A DNA stretch of 64,000 nt from an uncultured Methanoregulaceae archaeon. Lineage in GTDB: Archaea > Halobacteriota > Methanomicrobia > Methanomicrobiales > Methanospirillaceae. How positions within the stretch are numbered: position 1 is the stretch's first letter; each line of letters begins with the position of its first letter. The position numbers and the translations under genes were made by a program. The DNA is taken from assembly GCA_963705255.1 (NCBI GenBank), contig OY970061.1, positions 2,368,001-2,432,000 on the forward strand. The letters run 5' to 3'. The notes below the pieces were generated by a model that made no database searches, was not told where the DNA came from, and worked only from the letters and a program-made list of their open reading frames with translations. Of this stretch, positions 56,850-64,000 are shown piece after piece.

Positions 56850-57593
56850 TCAGATTTCGATTGTCAGGTCGTCGGTCGAGACAATGAGGCCGGGGAATTC
56901 CTGCCCGAACTGCTCCTGCACGGCCCGCCTGTCGTCAAGCGTCCGGTAGACTTCAGCACCGAAGTGCACGAGGGCGAGGCAGCGGGCGTGTGCCTCCCGG
57001 GCGATCCGGATCGCGTCCTGCGGGTTGAGGTGGGGCCACAACGGGCTCTCCTCACCGGGTTTCAGCCCGCATTCGGTGATGAGCAGGTCGGCGTCCCGCC
57101 CGAGCCTGACGGCGTTGTCGCAGACGCCGGTATCCGTACAGTACGTGATCACCTTCCCGTCCAGCTCGACCCGGTACCCGTAACAGGGCGCCGGGTGGAC
57201 GAGCGGGCGGCACTCGACCGTGAACGGGAGGTGGTGGACCCCTTCTTCGAGTTCGGTGGCCTCTGCGGGAAACGGGAGCTGGGCAAGCGGCACCGTGAAC
57301 GGTTCGTTCACGAACGTTGCAAGGAGAGCCGAACTTCCCGGCAGGCTGAAGATCTTCAGTCCTTTTCTGAGCCGGAACTTGCAGAGCGTATGCAGCCCGG
57401 CGATATGATCGATGTGGAAATGGCTGAGGAAGAGATACACGGGCTTCTTCTGGGTGATGTACCGGTCTGCCTTGGCAATGCCGTTCCCCGCATCAAAGAT
57501 GATATCATATTCAGCCGATTGGACGAGGACGGAACAGGTATTGCCGGTAACAGTGTCGTACCAGCCGTTGGTCCCAAGGAATGTCACCTTCAT
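56850..57593 (-). CDS. MBL-fold hydrolase, RNase Z-like
   Basis: FLGTNG, SHFHIDHIAG, YCTDT, HL, LVHF. Confidence 0.8.
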   Translation of the reverse strand: MKVTFLGTNGWYDTVTGNTCSVLVQSAEYDIIFDAGNGIAKADRYITQKKPVYLFLSHFHIDHIAGLHTLCKFRLRKGLKIFSLPGSSALLATFVNEPFTVPLAQLPFPAEATELEEGVHHLPFTVECRPLVHPAPCYGYRVELDGKVITYCTDTGVCDNAVRLGRDADLLITECGLKPGEESPLWPHLNPQDAIRIAREAHARCLALVHFGAEVYRTLDDRRAVQEQFGQEFPGLIVSTDDLTIEI

Positions 57594-57702
57594 GAGAGAG
57601 CATTGGGCCTTCATGAACAAAGAAGTTTCAGGTCATGTGCGTTGCCTTTTTATCTGTCCGCGTCGATGCTCGTTCTGTCTGATATCCTGTGGAGAAAGAA
57701 CC

Positions 57703-58569
57703 ATGAATCTTTTGTCATCCCTGTCCATTCTTGTTGCGATCATTGTACTATGCCTGTGTATTATGCCGGCGAGCGGGATCATTCAGGAAGTCACCATCAG
57801 AGGCTCGGTCACTTCCCCCGATCAGCCGAATAACACCCTGTCCATCGGGAACCCCCAGCAGTACGGGTGCAGTTATCCGGCGACCAGCGCTCCGGTCTGT
57901 TCCTATTCGCCTATGAACATCCCGGCCCTGACCGGGACGGTACCCAGTAACCTTGCGTACTCCATCTTCAAATCCGGAGACCCGGTCGTTGCGACGAGCC
58001 TCGGAGGCGCCGGGGGAACTTGGATCGGCCTTGCAAAGCTCTACGGGGCAAGCCCGGACGAGGAGTACGTGACCGATATCGTGGGAGACCCGGGCACGAT
58101 CCCGACACCGCTGATCGGCGGTTACGCGCTGGACGTGACAACGACTCCCGACTGTTCGGCCTGTTCCGGGACGACCTGCACCGCACTATCGTCGGACGTG
58201 AAAGTGATGAGCAGTGGAACGGTGGTCCATGAAGAGACCCTCCAGCCGCGGCAGTCCCTGATGTACAACGGAAGAAACGACGGCTCGAGCGTTGCGGTAA
58301 CATTCGTAAAAGGGGAGGCATCGTCCACGACCTGCGCGGGCAGGACCGGCATGACCGGGCCGCAGGCGGTCTCGGTGTATATTGTCAATATCGTCCCGCC
58401 GATCGGCTATGGACGGAACACAACCAGTCCGGGTGAAGCGCTGACACCTCTTCCACCGACCATTGTTACCACGGCGCCGGTCACCACGGCAAAGTCAGGC
58501 GGCCTTCCGATTGCCGTGATTGGTGCGCTTGGAGTGCTGGCCCTGGTAGTTGCGGAGCGGAAGAGGTAG
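57703..58569 (+). CDS. Secreted/surface protein with C-terminal anchor
   Basis: Signal peptide, Thr-rich linker, TM plus RKR. Confidence 0.75.
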   Translation: MNLLSSLSILVAIIVLCLCIMPASGIIQEVTIRGSVTSPDQPNNTLSIGNPQQYGCSYPATSAPVCSYSPMNIPALTGTVPSNLAYSIFKSGDPVVATSLGGAGGTWIGLAKLYGASPDEEYVTDIVGDPGTIPTPLIGGYALDVTTTPDCSACSGTTCTALSSDVKVMSSGTVVHEETLQPRQSLMYNGRNDGSSVAVTFVKGEASSTTCAGRTGMTGPQAVSVYIVNIVPPIGYGRNTTSPGEALTPLPPTIVTTAPVTTAKSGGLPIAVIGALGVLALVVAERKR

Positions 58570-58925
58570 ACCCGCGGGCTGGAACGGTTTCTTCATTTTC
58601 CGGAAAGGACTGCTAGGGATCGTATGCCTGTCAGTACCTGTTTTTTGCCCGCACCGGTACATGAGCGAAGGGATCTTTTTTGGAATCTGACGGAAAATCT
58701 GTTGGGCGTTTTTCAGAGAGAGGCCTGTGTCCGCGCGGCCATAGCCGGGATGACGGAACATGCCGTGGGGGTCACCATGAAAATGACCCCCGGAATCGCG
58801 GGGATGCCCATACCCTTCCCGGCACCCGTGCACCATCACCCGAAGGTCCTCTCCCTGATCGACTTGCCTGTCCTGGCAGAAAGGCTCATCATCAGACCCA
58901 ATCAGACAGGATCGCAGGAACATGC

Positions 58926-59078
58926 ATGACAGAAAACCTGAGAGAATCAGAGCGGGTCGATGTGACCGTACTTGTCGACAATTACATCGACCTGTTTGTC
59001 CCGCCCGCTATGGCGGGAGATCACCGCCCGCCGTTCTCCCCCGCCCGCCCCCTGCTCGCAGAACATGGCCTGTCCTGC
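58926..59078 (+). pseudogene. 5' fragment of MBL-fold hydrolase
   Basis: VTVLVDNYID...LLAEHGLSC then homology ends. Confidence 0.65.
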
Positions 59079-59400
59079 CCCGGTGGGAGCGGACCCGGTA
59101 GCCGATGGCGAGGATCATGTCGAGGTTGTAAAAGAGCGTGCGATAATTCCTGCTGTCAGCGGCAGTTGTTAAGTATTCCTTAATAACTGAACCCGCTTCC
59201 AGCTCGCCACCCCTGAGAATATTCCGGATATGCATGCTGATATTTGGTATGGAGGTCTGGTAGAGTTCCGCGATGCGGGCCTGGGTAAGCCAGACGGTTC
59301 CCTCATCGAGCCGGACTTCGATGCGGCTGCTCCCGTCTTCGGACTGGTAGAAGAGGATCTGCGACCGGGTTACCGGCTCCGGGAGGGGATTGCTGCTCAT
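59077..59400 (-). pseudogene. 5' fragment of RhuM/virulence-family protein
   Basis: TVWLTQARIAELY...YNLDMILAIGYRVRSHRG, truncated. Confidence 0.75.
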
Positions 59401-59671
59401 TGTCCAACCATGCGCCACAGTGTACTTATTCTTAACCGGATGTTTGGCTTTTTATAGTGTGGCACCATGGGGTGAAAATAACCGGGGGTGGAAGGAGGGG
59501 CTGAAAACTGATGCGCGGGTATCCCATAATCCACCTATCTGTTCCTCTCAGTCCCGGTGCAGCCCCGGCAAAAGTCCCGGCATCATTTCACCGGCCCCAC
59601 TTCTCTATCGTGTCGATCTCCGCTATGAACTCCTTCAGCCGTTCGCGTTCCGGCCCGAACCATCGTTGTTT

Positions 59672-60126
59672 TTACTCCTGCCCCTTCGCCCACCGCACCA
59701 GCACCGCGAGGACCGCGACCAGCACCATGTCGAAGATTTACTTCGTAAATCTTCTCCTCTTCGAATTTCGCTTTGCTCAATTCTTCGGAGATCGAAGAAT
59801 TCTTGCGAATTCGGTCGAAGAACTTCGTTCAGGAGAAGATTCTTCTTCTCCTGTCTCAAGTCTGATGACTTTCGACATTCTGATGACCCTCAGCATTCTC
59901 CTCCTCCAGGTCCTGATGGACCTATCGGATGTCGGAGAAACCTGAAGGTTTCTTCTTTTCCTCCAGGTCTGATGACCTGTCGGACAAAAAAAACGACCGG
60001 CATGTGCGCCGAACCCCTGGACACGACCAGCACCATGTCGAGCACCATCCCGAGGGCCAGCCCCGCAGCGATGCCGACGATGAGGCGCCTGATCGTGCGG
60101 TCTTCGAAAATGGGAATACCCGAATA
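59672..60126 (-). pseudogene. Small 2-TM membrane protein, copy A, interrupted by hairpin-element array; no clear start codon
   Basis: IFEDRTIRRL...HMPVVFF | VVLVAVLAVLVRWAKGQE; 198 bp in frame once the 257-bp insert is removed. Confidence 0.7.
59728..59984 (-). mobile_element. Array of 5 double-hairpin miniature elements (tandem and nested)
   Basis: Absent from paralog C; parses into units T..GA-stem-loop-stem-GA, 3 nt, GAAG..CTTC, GAYN. Confidence 0.75.
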
Positions 60127-60215
60127 ACCCGGATTTTAACAGCAATTTTCAGCAAAAAAATGATGACGGGGAAGAGATAATACCTACACAGAAAAGTTAT
60201 GGGAGAGCGGGTGCG

Positions 60216-60512
60216 ATGGCTGGACGGACATTGAAGAAGAAGATCCAAGATTCTATTGTCTCAATCCTGACCCGGTATGATGCCGAGCGGATCGCCATCT
60301 TTGGTTCCTATGCCCGGGGAGAAGCCGGCGAAAACAGCGATATTGACATCCTTGTAAGGTTTGCCCGGCCAAAAAGCCTGATCCAGATTGTACAGATCGA
60401 AGACGAGATCAGGAAGTTCATCCATATGAAAGTCGATCTCGTAACCGAGAAAGCCGTCAGCCCCCATCTTGCCGGCACCATTTTCCGCGATGAAATGGTG
60501 ATCTATGGATGA
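60216..60512 (+). CDS. MNT nucleotidyltransferase (antitoxin)
   Basis: IFGSYARGE...SDIDILV, KVDLV. Confidence 0.9.
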   Translation: MAGRTLKKKIQDSIVSILTRYDAERIAIFGSYARGEAGENSDIDILVRFARPKSLIQIVQIEDEIRKFIHMKVDLVTEKAVSPHLAGTIFRDEMVIYG

Positions 60513-60660
60513 AACCGGAAGACCCGGCGTACCTCCATCACATGCCTGATGCTATTATCCATTTCGAAGATTTGATCCAAATCTTCTCGTCTTCAGGGTT
60601 CTGATAAACCCCTCAGACATTGAGAAATTTTCCAAGGGAATCACATCTGCCTCTTCTCTT
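60509..60660 (+). pseudogene. HEPN/DUF86 toxin remnant, interrupted and truncated
   Basis: MKPEDPAYLHHMPDAIIH|IEKFSKGIT after removing the 56-bp insert; ATGA overlap with MNT. Confidence 0.7.
60562..60617 (-). mobile_element. Single double-hairpin miniature element (56 bp)
   Basis: tct GA ggggttt atca gaaccct GA aga cga gaagatttg gat caaatcttc gaaa. Confidence 0.75.
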
Positions 60661-60693
60661 AAGGACCGCCCGCTTGAACGCGCCGGTATCACG

Positions 60694-61104
60694 CTAAATA
60701 CGTTCAGCGAGATCCCGGGTTGAATAGATCTTCAGGATATCCTGTTTAAGAAAATGCCGGTCTTCTGTCCAGATACCGTCGATACCAAGGGAAATGCCGA
60801 CAGCAAGGAACACAGAATCGTTTTCATCCACTGTTTCCATGACCTGCATTGCATGATTAAACTCGGCTGAGAACTCTTCAAAAGGAACAAGGACGACACG
60901 GTTAAGCAGGGTTTGCATAAGGATATCAAAGTCCTGTTCAGAGATTTTTGCCTTTTTCAGAAGGTAGGGCCGGTGTTTGTACAACTCGGTCTCAATATAA
61001 TCCGGGGCGTAAAATGAGAAGGACTTATGCAGGATAATTTTCCGCGAGACTGAATCCCGAAGGAGATCAGCCATGATCCGGTTGGTATCTATGACAAGTT
61101 TCAT
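60694..61104 (-). CDS. PIN-domain toxin (VapC-like)
   Basis: LVIDTN, DENDSVFLA, IWTEDRHF. Confidence 0.85.
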   Translation of the reverse strand: MKLVIDTNRIMADLLRDSVSRKIILHKSFSFYAPDYIETELYKHRPYLLKKAKISEQDFDILMQTLLNRVVLVPFEEFSAEFNHAMQVMETVDENDSVFLAVGISLGIDGIWTEDRHFLKQDILKIYSTRDLAERI

Positions 61105-61153
61105 CGGGTTCTGCCTTTGGCGTCAGGAAATAGTCTTAGGCTGCACTGCTTTT

Positions 61154-61414
61154 TTAAGAGAGATCTGCTTTCCTGGCGGGGCTTCGCGATGCTTTACCCT
61201 TGTAATGTTTCAGGATTCCCGCCTTCGCCTTCTTATCGAGAGCCATGATATCATCCTCAGTAAGCTCGCTCTCCCGGGTCATGGCATTCAGGAGCGCAAT
61301 TTTTTTGGCGTAATCCTCGATTGCCCTTCGGGCGATCTCACTCCACCGGACCTCATTGTGAGCTTTTACAATCTTGTAGACATCTTCCGGGAGCGACAGC
61401 GTCATGTTTGGCAT
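61154..61414 (-). CDS. RHH-type antitoxin
   Basis: MPNMTLSLPEDVY...EVRWSEIARRAI upstream of PIN gene. Confidence 0.75.
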   Translation of the reverse strand: MPNMTLSLPEDVYKIVKAHNEVRWSEIARRAIEDYAKKIALLNAMTRESELTEDDIMALDKKAKAGILKHYKGKASRSPARKADLS

Positions 61415-61423
61415 AACATCACC

Positions 61424-61439
61424 ACACATATCTATGTGT
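61424..61439. promoter_or_regulatory. Putative TA autoregulation operator ACACATA-TC-TATGTGT
   Basis: Inverted repeat between minus-strand TTAAATA and the antitoxin start. Confidence 0.55.
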
Positions 61440-61540
61440 ATTCACATATTTAAGAGGATTGGGGCCAGATAGGTGGCTGCAATAATTTTTCTGATAAAAG
61501 AGTCACGATTTTCCCGCGTCCAAAAGCCCTTTGGATTAAC

Positions 61541-61737
61541 TTACTCCAGCCCGTTCGACCACCACACCAGCACGGCTAGGACCACTATGAGAACTAATAA
61601 AAAATAACCGGCATGTACGCCGAACCCCTGAACACAACCAGCACAATGTCCAGGATCATCCCGAGGGCCAGCCCCGCAGCGATACCGACGATGAGGCGTT
61701 TGATCGTGCGGTCTTCGAATATTGTTACATCCACCAT
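61541..61737 (-). CDS. Small 2-TM membrane protein, copy C (uninterrupted; one T short in a homopolymer)
   Basis: MVDVTIFEDRTIKRLIVGIAAGLALGMILDIVLVVFRGSAYMPVIF(L)LVLIVVLAVLVWWSNGLE. Confidence 0.7.
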
Positions 61738-61861
61738 GTTCTTTACTGAACGTGGATCGTGTTATGGTTTTGGGAGCGGGGTGGCATCGCCAATAGCCCT
61801 GAGGAGAATGCCCCCCGTTTTCAGGGCTTTGTCATGGCGGGGGCCCGGACCGAGGAAACCG

Positions 61862-62080
61862 TCACACAAGTTCACCGGGATCAATACCGGCATCCTTGCA
61901 GATCTGTTTTACGATCTTCGGGTGCAGGATCTTCCCGGCATGATCCGGTACGGTTACCCTGACACCAGCATCGTTTTTAAAAATTTTGTGACTCCCACTT
62001 TGCCGTACGCAACTGAACCCTTTCCTTTTCAGCAGGGTGATGATCCGTTCAGCCGGGATCCGGGGGAGTCTTTCACTCAT
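61862..62080 (-). CDS. hicA: HicA-family toxin
   Basis: GFSCVRQSGSHKIF, VTVPDH. Confidence 0.9.
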   Translation of the reverse strand: MSERLPRIPAERIITLLKRKGFSCVRQSGSHKIFKNDAGVRVTVPDHAGKILHPKIVKQICKDAGIDPGELV

Positions 62081-62301
62081 ACCGTGACATCGACTGTGGT
62101 TAAATTGATCAGATGCGCCTGGGGGATCTTCTCTCCGGAATTGATGCGATCATCGAGATGGAGGCGGATGGCATCCCGGATATTGTCAAGGACTTCTTCA
62201 TAGGTCTCTCCCTGTGCATAGCATCCCTGGAGTTCCGGGCAGAATGCGGTGTAGCCATCTTCATCTTTTTCGATTACTACGGAAAAACGGAAATTGTTCA
62301 T
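62077..62301 (-). CDS. hicB: HicB-family antitoxin
   Basis: YTAFCPELQGCYAQGETYEE. Confidence 0.9.
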   Translation of the reverse strand: MNNFRFSVVIEKDEDGYTAFCPELQGCYAQGETYEEVLDNIRDAIRLHLDDRINSGEKIPQAHLINLTTVDVTV

Positions 62302-62467
62302 ACAGTAACCCCTTATGCGTCCTCTCGTGAATATATCGTATCGGCCAGTGCAATAACTTTTTGATTGCCTGCCATGAGTTGATGGCAGCCAGGGAGGGGA
62401 TTTGGGTCTGGGCCGGCCCGGTCCCCGGGGACGAGATTCATCCTTGGTACCGAAAGGGAATCCCACC

Positions 62468-62876
62468 TCACTCCAGCCCCTTCGCCCACCGCGCCAGCAC
62501 CGCGAGGACCACAACCAGCACCAGATCGAAGAATTCTTGCGAATTCGGTCGAAGAACTTCGTTCAATCGAAGGCGTTCCGCCTTCTCGTGTCTCAAGTCT
62601 GATGACTTTCGACATTCTCCTGCCTCGGGTCTTATGACCCTCAGCATTCTCCTCCTCCAGGTCCTGATGGACCTATCGGATGTCGGAGAAACCTGAAGGT
62701 TTCTTCTTTTCCTCCAGGTCTGATGACCTGTCGGACAAAAAAACGACCGGCATGTGCGCCGAGCCCCTGAACACGACCAGCACGATGTCGAGCACCATCC
62801 CGAGGGCCAGCCCCGCAACGATGCCGACGATGAGGCGCTTGATCGTGCGATCTTCGAATATGGTATAGTCTGTCAT
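62468..62876 (-). pseudogene. Small 2-TM membrane protein, copy B, interrupted by hairpin-element array
   Basis: MTDYTIFEDRTIKRL...HMPVVF | VLVVVLAVLARWAKGLE. Confidence 0.7.
62524..62735 (-). mobile_element. Array of 4 double-hairpin miniature elements (tandem and doubly nested)
   Basis: Units of 55, 57, 50 and 50 bp sum to the 212-bp insert. Confidence 0.78.
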
Positions 62877-62996
62877 GGTTATTTCCTTACTTATCTTGCG
62901 TCGTCCTGGTTCCAGAAATTTCTTGCGGGGTCCGGCTTTTTTATTTCCATCACATCCAGACACCGGACTGTGCCGGTGCACGGGTCACCATGTATC

Positions 62997-63419
62997 TCAG
63001 CCATCCCCATTCCCGCTCCCGAACACGTCCGGGAAATATTCCCGGATCCGGTGGCGTTCCCGCTCGTTTAGCCCGCGGAGCTTCCGGCCTGCCAGCCCTA
63101 TGATGAATGCCGCCGCATCGTACCGGTCCGCGAACGGGCTGATCATCGGCCGGCCCGAAGGCCCGGGCAGGTAGCAGAGATAGAAGGAGGATGCCCTCCC
63201 CGGTACCGGATGTGGGGCGAAGAACCCAGGGGGTTCTTCTTCTCCTCGAGGTCTGCTAACCTCTCGGACATAGAGAACTGTCTCCCGTACTGCCGTGATA
63301 CCGGTGACTGGTGAACTGTGCTGGATACGGAGGAGCGCCACGTCTGAACAGGGATTTGGTTCCCGAGGTTGTCCCTCCCTGTTCCGGCTGGCATCCGGCC
63401 GTTTCGTTTCCATCTTCAC
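62997..63419 (-). CDS. Hypothetical protein carrying an in-frame 54-bp element
   Basis: ORF stays open; reads ETVLYAHPVPG without the insert. Confidence 0.55.
   Translation of the reverse strand: MKMETKRPDASRNREGQPREPNPCSDVALLRIQHSSPVTGITAVRETVLYVREVSRPRGEEEPPGFFAPHPVPGRASSFYLCYLPGPSGRPMISPFADRYDAAAFIIGLAGRKLRGLNERERHRIREYFPDVFGSGNGDG
63215..63268 (-). mobile_element. Single double-hairpin miniature element (54 bp)
   Basis: tcc GA gaggtt agca gacctc GA gga gaa gaagaaccc cct gggttcttc gccc. Confidence 0.72.
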
Positions 63420-63521
63420 CAGGCACCAGTGCAGGTATTGGCGGGAGGTGGGGATAAATTTGTCGACTATAGTCTGCGATAAACATTACCCTCTTTTCAA
63501 CTGAATCTCATTTGAGTGAAA

Positions 63522-63786
63522 ATGCACGAGGAAGAAATTTTTGGCAGGATATTGCAGGAAGAGCGGAAAGCCAAAAAAATTTCCCAGGAGAAACTTGCAA
63601 AACTCGCCGGCCTCGACCGGACCTTCATCAGACCTCATCGAAAACGGAAAACGGAGCCCGACTTTTTCTACGATTCTGAAAATTTGTTCTGCTCTCGAAA
63701 TCGATCCTTCTGAACTCTTCTCGATTTACGAGAAGAAGGATCCTGAATATTCCGTGAAGAAAGGCGGGAAGCGGGAGAAATTTTGA
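63522..63786 (+). CDS. XRE-family HTH regulator (frameshift near 63630)
   Basis: SQEKLAKLAGLDRTFI / LIENGKRSPT..ICSALEI. Confidence 0.8.
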
Positions 63787-63804
63787 TGCTCACTAGGACT
63801 CCGC

Positions 63805-63835
63805 AGTCCAAGATTCTCTTATGAGAATCTTCTCC
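63805..63835 (-). mobile_element. Partial double-hairpin element (second hairpin only)
   Basis: gga gaagattctc ataa gagaatcttg gact; first hairpin degenerate. Confidence 0.45.
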
Positions 63836-64000
63836 ACTGCTTTCTGGCAATCCTAGCCGCGTGGGCTTGCCCCCGACGAAATTATCTCGTTCTCATCCTG
63901 AATTTATCTATCTCCGGGAAAAAATTATGTTTTTCCAAGAATGCCTTGACACCCCCAATTCCCTTTTCAAGATAAATTATTCCTATCAGCATCTCGAAAC

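Follow-up and report, generated by a model that had tools for sequence, protein, structure and literature searches.

Small palindromic repeats in the genome of an uncultured Methanoregulaceae archaeon (assembly GCA_963705255.1, contig OY970061.1) form a family in which units as well as single modules come and go at the DNA level, both between close strains and between paralogous copies of a gene. The gains have blunt junctions and no target duplication, lie mostly between genes, and very often fall in or beside an existing module. We studied the family in a stretch of 64,000 nt, hereafter the window, which comprises bases 2368001-2432000 of this one-contig genome (2.60 Mb, 54.6% G+C). The repeats resemble the repetitive extragenic palindromes (REP) and bacterial interspersed mosaic elements (BIME) of bacteria, and we give about an even chance to the view that they are lineage-restricted, small, non-coding, modular palindromic repeats of this REP/BIME-like kind that are mobilized in trans by a putative enzyme other than a Y1 transposase. 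An earlier reading of the letters of this stretch (the original prediction) had proposed a real family of small non-autonomous elements, and further copies were indeed found across the genome and in its relatives.

Structure and Pairing of the Units

Eleven double-hairpin units and one single hairpin, all on the minus strand, were placed by exact string location at 59728-63836 of the window, in agreement with the eleven units and one partial copy of the original prediction. The common unit, 45-62 nt in total, consists of a variable first hairpin, bracketed by opposed GA/GA and two further outer pairs, followed on its 3′ side by a short purine-rich linker, a second hairpin with a fixed GAAG/CTTC outer stem, and a tail beginning with GA. 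After CTTC, the tail has G at the first position in 105/109 units and A at the second in 93/109, then mostly C or A, and then C or T. The predicted design was right in all main points (double hairpin, GA/GA, linker, GAAG..CTTC and GA tail), while the statement that units start with T holds only partly.

A strict composite pattern (two pairs, GA, a perfect 4-9 bp stem with a 3-7 nt loop, GA, two pairs, and a GAAG..CTTC hairpin) has 62 matches in the genome, compared with 1, 2, and 0 in three shuffled versions, and a relaxed pattern has 228 matches compared with 26 in one shuffle. R1, a covariance model built from 25 units, has at least 152 genome matches at E<=0.01, from scoring the best 150 of 2127 first-look candidates. 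Within 59000-64000 of the window, with filters off, R1 gave 21 matches at E<=1. Nine on the minus strand are full-length with E<=1.5e-4, and a tenth is at E 0.017; on the plus strand, matches at E<=0.14 are confined to the palindromic second hairpin, while two weaker ones, at E 0.23 and E 0.38, extend across the model.

In the training alignment of R1, 93% of cells are paired and 12 of 18 pairs show double changes; these figures are circular since the units were chosen by structure, and therefore two tests that do not presuppose pairing were run. The first took the second hairpin's outer motif as its sole anchor, with shuffled interiors as the control. Fully paired interiors, down to a loop of at most 6 nt, accounted for 208 of the 300 anchored ones (29.5 +/- 3.8 after shuffling), and for 148 of the 227 interiors of at least 11 nt (4.0 after shuffling); there were 209 distinct interiors and 103 distinct fully paired variants. 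In the second test, hairpins were sought upstream of the anchors with unconstrained flanks. A hairpin of at least 5 bp lies directly upstream in 158/208 anchors, and 72 of these 158 have GA on both flanks, where chance would give fewer than one. The two pairs outside GA/GA covary as well (TC/GA 23, CT/AG 11, CC/GG 7, TT/AA 5, GC/GC 3). The claim that pairing is kept while stem sequences differ is thus borne out by both tests.

Pairing is perfectly Watson-Crick in 162/195 second-hairpin interiors and 100/139 first stems, and among single mismatches on the unit strand G.T exceeds A.C (28 vs. 14). The commonest loops are GAA (33), ATCA (30), GCA (10), TTCA (7), and GTCA (7). GNA triloops with a closing C-G pair, like tandem sheared G.A pairs, are known to make DNA hairpins more stable. 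Five units of the window, folded as DNA, gave the two expected hairpins, with z of -3.4 to -4.8 relative to dinucleotide shuffles. Metagenome contigs from two studies span 60562-60617 with zero differences, and one further metagenome contig spans 63215-63268; therefore, the inserts are not artefacts of this assembly.

The search of Rfam 15 over 57000-64000 at E<=1 returned only two weak matches, unrelated to the units, and none at or near a gathering score. C/D-box small RNA, kink-turn, and bulge-helix-bulge intron readings were dropped on inspection of the sequence by eye, as the GA/GA element is a 2x2 loop without a 3-nt bulge and guide-like stretches are self-complementary. The units are not CRISPR repeats: the single array found (~504.9-506 kb of the genome) has an unrelated repeat.

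Filled and Empty Sites

G041, the closest of the genomes compared, shares 93-98% identity with this one in syntenic stretches. A comparison of 788 kb of G041, of which 634,827 bases align, gave 33 indels of at least 25 nt; we inspected the 21 of at most 170 nt and one larger. Clean events involving hairpin modules account for five of the 21. One 62-nt unit is present in G041 and absent here; a 54-nt unit with two further modules across a small hairpin, a 37-nt single hairpin of the second type, and a 45-nt unit are each present here and absent from G041; and a 58-nt gain in G041 is bounded by a 21-nt hairpin in direct repeat. The remaining 16 involve unrelated sequence, tandem duplications, or poorly alignable stretches. 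Of the 12 indels above this size, six on the side of this genome fall at places where the relaxed pattern has units, and one of these six was inspected.

At 2190.5 kb of the genome, the 5′ arm of a second hairpin is interrupted by a 50-nt unit, with GAGAA before it and GAAC after it, and G041 has this hairpin intact; the locus also carries a 270-nt mosaic here, bounded by a duplicated hairpin of about 35 nt. The cleanest case is in the window, where the G041 orthologue of a 140-amino-acid open reading frame (ORF) without a Pfam family lacks exactly the 54 nt of the unit that the ORF contains here. This insert adds 18 codons in frame and without a stop, with the junctions TATGT / unit / ACA. 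Empty orthologous sites, which the original prediction had named as a check, were thus found in G041 for these two events and others, and its claims that removing a unit restores the host frame or the host hairpin each hold in one case, the 54-nt and the 50-nt event, respectively.

Target duplications, likewise predicted to be absent, were seen at neither orthologous nor paralogous sites; relative to G041, none accompanies the events of 50, 54 (ORF), 62, 54, 37, and 45 nt. The junctions of the 50- and 54-nt events cannot be slid and share no base, and a crossover at a common dinucleotide by a serine recombinase (IS607-like) was rejected on these grounds. Left flanks differ (TATGT, GTTG, GGAGAA, GGGGGA, GTGAG), with no clear common 4-5-nt target. 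The claim that insertion sites all follow TG stands in part: TG forms the 5′ junction in all nine junctions parsed by eye, including five resolvable events, but belongs to the inserted DNA in three of these five and to the empty allele in two. TG directly precedes the outer pair of the first hairpin in 32/109 units.

Mapping of flanks against the relative placed 33 of 120 units, of which 14 were absent, 9 present, 8 longer, and 2 shorter; repeated flanks confound these counts, which are a rough sign of turnover.

Modularity and Nesting

The unit is not fixed: its two hairpins recombine, and single hairpins come and go separately. One first hairpin, of the TGTCGAAAGTC... type, has at least eight different second hairpins as its partners, and copy-to-copy similarity begins and stops at module borders. 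For example, the 37-nt hairpin (query 41-77) matches three loci, two over positions 41-76 and one over 41-73, and the unit at 60562 in the window has a first hairpin like that of one locus and a second like that of another. A gap-free orthologue was found under strict criteria for only four units, and all four differ; in one of them, two adjacent double changes turn the first stem into another known variant of the family. No further copy of the 54-nt unit of the ORF was found, either in this genome at E<1e-4 or in 61 genomes of the genus at up to 3 mismatches over 48 nt. Hairpin recombination and single-hairpin turnover therefore place the family closer to REP/BIME mosaics than to a uniform MITE (miniature transposable element with inverted repeats).

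One recurrent site lies in the 5′ arm of the second hairpin, with GAGAA before it and GAA after it, and the resulting nesting makes clusters grow. A small membrane-protein gene has five genome copies (A to E), three of which lie in the window on the minus strand at 59.6-63.9 kb. Four units follow the T run in copy B and five in copy C, and copy E holds the unit block with two further nested units, one of them inverted within a first hairpin's loop. In G041, one copy is intact and empty, and another has a single 57-nt unit at the site of the blocks of B, C, and E, which hold four to five units or more at that common site. Copy D has no Pfam family.

The gene forms part of a two-gene cassette, in which the 140-amino-acid ORF precedes the 65-amino-acid two-helix membrane protein. 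Further copies of the cassette are found at 2055.4-2056.9 and 2433.2-2433.5 kb of the genome, and G041 has at least two copies of the membrane-protein gene.

Placement and Distribution

Placement counts rest on a crude gene map of 2514 ORFs of at least 90 amino acids, covering 82% of the genome. Of 109 high-confidence units, 71 are intergenic, in 18% of the genome, and convergent gaps hold 25 units while divergent gaps of equal total length hold 7. Within tandem gaps, gene and unit orientation combine in four ways, seen 9, 11, 10, and 9 times, without bias; such indifference to the neighboring genes favors a DNA element over a strand-specific RNA. The 36 units inside crude ORFs, mostly spurious-looking ones of 90-130 amino acids, show no preferred frame. 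Units number 42 on the plus and 67 on the minus strand, and no replichore-linked strand switch was seen along the chromosome, which has no usable GC skew.

The family is lineage-restricted. Counts of R1 matches per genome are lower bounds throughout. In the genus, 36 of 61 genomes have at least one match at E<=1e-5, and 12 are unit-rich, with at least 34 to at least 92 matches (G000, G041, G019, G053, G062, G050, G059, G047, G070, G071, G055, and G060); 25 have none among the matches listed, including the one-contig genomes G020 and G054. Among 151 genomes of the class, a second genus of the same taxonomic family has at least 19 and at least 18 matches in two of its three genomes and a third genus at least 4, and outside that taxonomic family there is at most one among the matches listed.

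Mosaics of several hairpin types, ~250-340 nt long, occur in at least eight places (233.4, 254.0, 515.9, 2190.5, 2200.0, 2209.2, 2503.1, and 2577.6 kb of the genome). By eye, they start after a TATA-like stretch and end at a T run, and could be transcribed units. A short motif, CACGGCGGGGCAAGG, is often found with its variants 3′ of units (e.g., at 88.9, 115.4, 166.5, 175.2, and 1409.4 kb of the genome) and may be another module of the mosaics. A tandem array of at least seven copies of a 59-nt repeat starts at genome position 360026, with an R1 match nearby at 360479-360539.

Search for a Mobilizing Enzyme

The window has no transposase, as the original prediction had noted, and the units have no coding capacity. 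The original prediction further linked the units to HUH enzymes of the Y1 type and suggested a check for co-occurring Y1 transposases whose ends carry the same hairpins; this link found no support. PF01797, the family of Y1 transposases including the REP-associated tyrosine transposases (RAYTs), had no match in this genome, while 6 of 14 control genomes responded, and none in the 12 unit-rich genomes. It was found in 5 of the 61 genus genomes (G001, G006, G016, G023, and G054), whose R1 unit counts, again lower bounds, are 3, 2, 1, 0, and 0, and no Y1 transposase with the same hairpins at its ends was found among the 61 genomes searched with PF01797. With R1, no unit was found beside the relatives' Y1 genes, two remnants of TnpB genes in this genome, or its IS6/IS240-type transposase (best E 0.067). 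Further, no gene of at least 150 amino acids in this genome has units within 350 nt on both sides. PF04986 (Y2/IS91) gave no match, and the control genomes were silent as well.

PF07282 (TnpB) has three matches in the genome. Two are the truncated TnpB-like genes, which are remnants of IS200/IS605-family elements; the third, weak and below the family cut-off, is a 336-amino-acid ORF that was read by eye as a TFB-like zinc-ribbon transcription factor and set aside. Self-comparison of the genome for insertion sequences returned mostly paralogous genes, and the only transposase-like repeat was the IS6/IS240-type gene. A classical DDE-type MITE does not fit, given that there is no target duplication and that this sole repeated DDE transposase has no unit nearby. 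The short, clustered, mostly extragenic palindromes are as in a REP/RAYT system, but neither an unpaired GTAG/CGTC tag nor a Y1 gene flanked by repeats was seen. A viral origin was considered as well. The degenerate pattern of the second hairpin has matches on 50 viral contigs, about as many as expected by chance; on these contigs R1 gave 8 weak matches of no more than 29 bits, each coinciding with the pattern, and no real units.

Possible Mechanisms of Spread

Taken together, we hypothesize that the module, a hairpin whose stem has opposed GA/GA on its flanks and two further closing pairs, would be recognized in single-stranded DNA by a trans-acting enzyme not of the Y1 type, which would cut at fixed distances from the stem. 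Recombination or gene conversion among dispersed modules would then reshuffle first and second hairpins, and rapid turnover would keep most copies young and perfectly paired. We favor an enzyme because unit ends are canonical even at unique sites without homology, because loops of this type, like the G.A bracket, are known to stabilize DNA hairpins, and because orientation is indifferent to transcription. A more specific proposal, which we advance tentatively and regard as possible but doubtful, is a new kind of mobile DNA in archaea, with modules of 25-60 nt, a G.A recognition bracket, putative non-HUH single-strand cut-and-paste without duplication, and self-homing into the 5′ arm of the second hairpin that yields nested mosaics.

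Several points weigh against the hypothesis of an enzyme acting in trans. The enzyme was not found, and its action, the central mechanistic step, is something that we infer. Nested events do not reveal whether they are insertions or deletions, and short direct repeats within the units (GGAGAA, CTTCGA) could be a cause of deletions. Gene conversion could explain some filled/empty pairs, which lie in multi-copy mosaics. The 21-nt hairpin in direct repeat at one indel and the duplicated hairpin at the 270-nt gain fit recombination or template switching better than transposition. No donor is visible for the 54-nt unit of the ORF, which has no near-identical copy in the 61 genomes. Lastly, the covariation count of R1 is circular and the gene map crude.

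Alternatively, the repeats might spread with no enzyme of their own, by template switching, slipped pairing, and ectopic gene conversion, with hairpin-templated correction keeping the arms complementary. This would account for the indels bounded by a duplicated whole hairpin, for the orthologous first hairpin that was swapped to another family variant by two adjacent double changes, for one first hairpin being joined to many second hairpins, for growth beside existing modules, and for the large share of perfectly paired stems in both hairpins. However, while such a process explains the hairpin-bounded indels and module swaps, it explains insertions into unique sequence poorly. The 54-nt insert in the ORF and the first unit of the membrane-protein gene have no flanking homology or microhomology at both junctions and still respect the canonical unit ends, and enzyme-free spread also gives no reason for the bimodal distribution among genomes. 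We consider it fairly unlikely.

The hypothesis of the original prediction, that the units are non-autonomous relatives of IS200/IS605- or REP/RAYT-type elements moved by a Y1 HUH transposase, draws on hairpins at both ends, blunt and duplication-free junctions, ends that are fixed relative to the stems, TG at the nine 5′ junctions parsed by eye and, in 32/109 units, just before the outer pair of the first hairpin, DNA-type loops, and the two TnpB remnants, which indicate that IS200/IS605-family elements were once resident. However, PF01797 is missing from every unit-rich genome although control genomes responded, the five genomes of the genus that bear it have few or no units among the matches listed, and no unit adjoins a Y1 gene or TnpB remnant and no gene is flanked by units. 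The left flanks also show no clear common target, strands do not switch with the replichores, and the 50 pattern-matching viral contigs hold no real units. In addition, a 2018 survey, in the part consulted, reports only IS200-type Y1 enzymes from archaea and none that is REP-associated (PMC6006769). Such an enzyme would have diverged strongly, have been lost recently, or come from outside with a virus or plasmid, and it is now unlikely that a Y1 HUH enzyme is the mobilizer.

A primarily functional role as RNA or DNA signals under structural selection (terminators, RNA-stability elements, or protein-binding sites), with mobility being secondary, would agree with pairing that is strongly conserved although stems come in over 100 distinct variants, enrichment in convergent gaps and hence at 3′ ends of genes, the excess of G.T over A.C mismatches, and the TATA-like stretches and T runs seen by eye around some mosaics, but is highly improbable, and a purely functional signal fits poorly because 25 genomes of the genus have no match among those listed and because insertions break genes; unbiased orientation in tandem gaps, high turnover between strains of 93-98% identity, and the lack of an Rfam match in 57000-64000 also speak against it.

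Comparison with Known Repeats

The family is similar to REP, BIME, and REPIN sequences of bacteria in being short imperfect palindromes of hundreds of copies, mostly extragenic and favoring 3′ ends of genes, and in forming strain-variable, non-coding, duplication-free mosaics of several hairpin types with variable linkers. By contrast, the hosts here are archaea, the stem has a bracket of NN-GA on either side in place of the GTAG tag, the unit-rich genomes gave no RAYT gene, stems are far more varied within one genome, and units nest inside each other's stems.

The closest comparison among repeats without a dedicated transposase is with the CGTC/TGTC-tagged REPs, such as RPE-4 and RPE-6 (Rickettsia palindromic elements, RPEs) and Neisseria dRS3, which are described from five bacterial phyla only in the portion of the source drawn on here (Di Nocera et al., 2013; PMC3733652). 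As given in that portion, they are palindromes with 4-5-nt loops, some inside genes, for which no dedicated transposase was found, and these features are shared by our units. Their unpaired 5′ tag, 8-9-bp stems starting with A-T pairs, and CCA tail (PMC3733652) were not seen here; TGTC at some unit starts pairs with GACA on the far side, and the GA/GA bracket is the constant feature. Bacterial palindromic repeats of small size have been studied well, and their REP type is tied to a domesticated HUH transposase. The way in which transposase-less types spread is unsettled (PMC3733652).

Two further groups invite comparison, namely the IS200/IS605 elements with their miniature derivatives, which include palindrome-associated elements of haloarchaea, and the palindromic coding repeats known as RPEs in Rickettsia and from Methanocaldococcus jannaschii. 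With the former, the units share subterminal hairpins, duplication-free insertion, and plausible action on single strands, but they have no cognate Y1 enzyme, no ends common to an autonomous element, and no clear fixed tetranucleotide target. With the latter, they share in-frame, stop-free insertion into a protein gene, seen here in one case; unlike the coding repeats as generally described, the units are mostly intergenic, break genes in their other genic insertions, and are half the size or less. In the literature on Methanoregula and other archaea, excluding subscription journals and ISfinder, we found no description of such repeats.

The family is of interest as an abundant, fast-turning one in archaea with clean filled and empty sites, a recurrent target within itself, and no Y1 gene in the unit-rich genomes searched. 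With unit-rich and unit-free genomes side by side in one genus, a search for the enzyme by phyletic profiling or hairpin pull-down is practical. The repeats also affect annotation: they create spurious ORFs of 90-130 amino acids, break or lengthen genes, and fragment assemblies.

Units and Neighboring Genes

The features of the window and the genome loci named above are collected in Table 1.

Table 1. Repeat units, host gene copies, neighboring genes, and transposase-related genes. Coordinates are those of the window unless marked as genome.
Feature	Coordinates	Strand	Remarks
Cluster C	59728-59984	-	five nested/abutting units in copy C of the two-helix membrane-protein gene
Cluster C, E1	59930-59984	-	exact string location
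Cluster C, E2 (split)	59896-59929 (5′ part) + 59790-59812 (3′ part)	-	
Cluster C, E3 (split)	59878-59895 (5′ part, 14 nt deleted) + 59813-59830 (3′ part)	-	
Cluster C, E4	59831-59877	-	
Cluster C, E5	59728-59789	-	
Cluster B	62524-62735	-	four units in copy B of the same gene
Cluster B, E1	62681-62735	-	
Cluster B, E2 (split)	62647-62680 (5′ part) + 62524-62546 (3′ part)	-	
Cluster B, E3 (split)	62615-62646 (5′ part) + 62547-62564 (3′ part)	-	
Cluster B, E4	62565-62614	-	
Isolated unit	60562-60619	-	61.7 bits with R1
Isolated 54-nt unit	63214-63267	-	in the 140-amino-acid ORF; 55.6 bits with R1
Single second-type hairpin module	63799-63836	-	the "partial" of the original prediction; 18.7 bits
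Membrane-protein gene, copy A	61543-61735	-	no unit; frameshifted at T run
Membrane-protein gene, copy B	~62470-62875	-	four units after T run; second gene of the cassette
Membrane-protein gene, copy C	~59680-60110	-	five units after T run
Membrane-protein gene, copy D	genome 2433230-2433430		just past window end; intact, 65 amino acids, two hydrophobic helices
140-amino-acid ORF	62997-63419	-	first gene of the cassette
Nucleotidyltransferase gene	60216-60512	+	
PIN_2 gene	60694-61104	-	
HicA gene	61862-62080	-	
HicB-like gene	62077-62301	-	
HTH protein gene	63541-63786	+	
Truncated TnpB-like gene, 240 amino acids	genome 2543266-2543988	-	IS200/IS605-family remnant
Truncated TnpB-like gene, 215 amino acids	genome 2035216-2035863	+	IS200/IS605-family remnant
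IS6/IS240-type DDE transposase, 394 amino acids	genome 2147365-2148549	+	second copy near 2152908

The single hairpin is of the same type as the 37-nt module that is present here and absent from G041 at another locus. Read by eye, the short open frame that hosts the isolated unit at 60562-60619 would be a truncated HEPN/DUF86-like gene downstream of the nucleotidyltransferase gene. The units sit in an island of toxin-antitoxin-type genes (60216-63790 of the window), and synteny with the closest relative breaks off near 59080.

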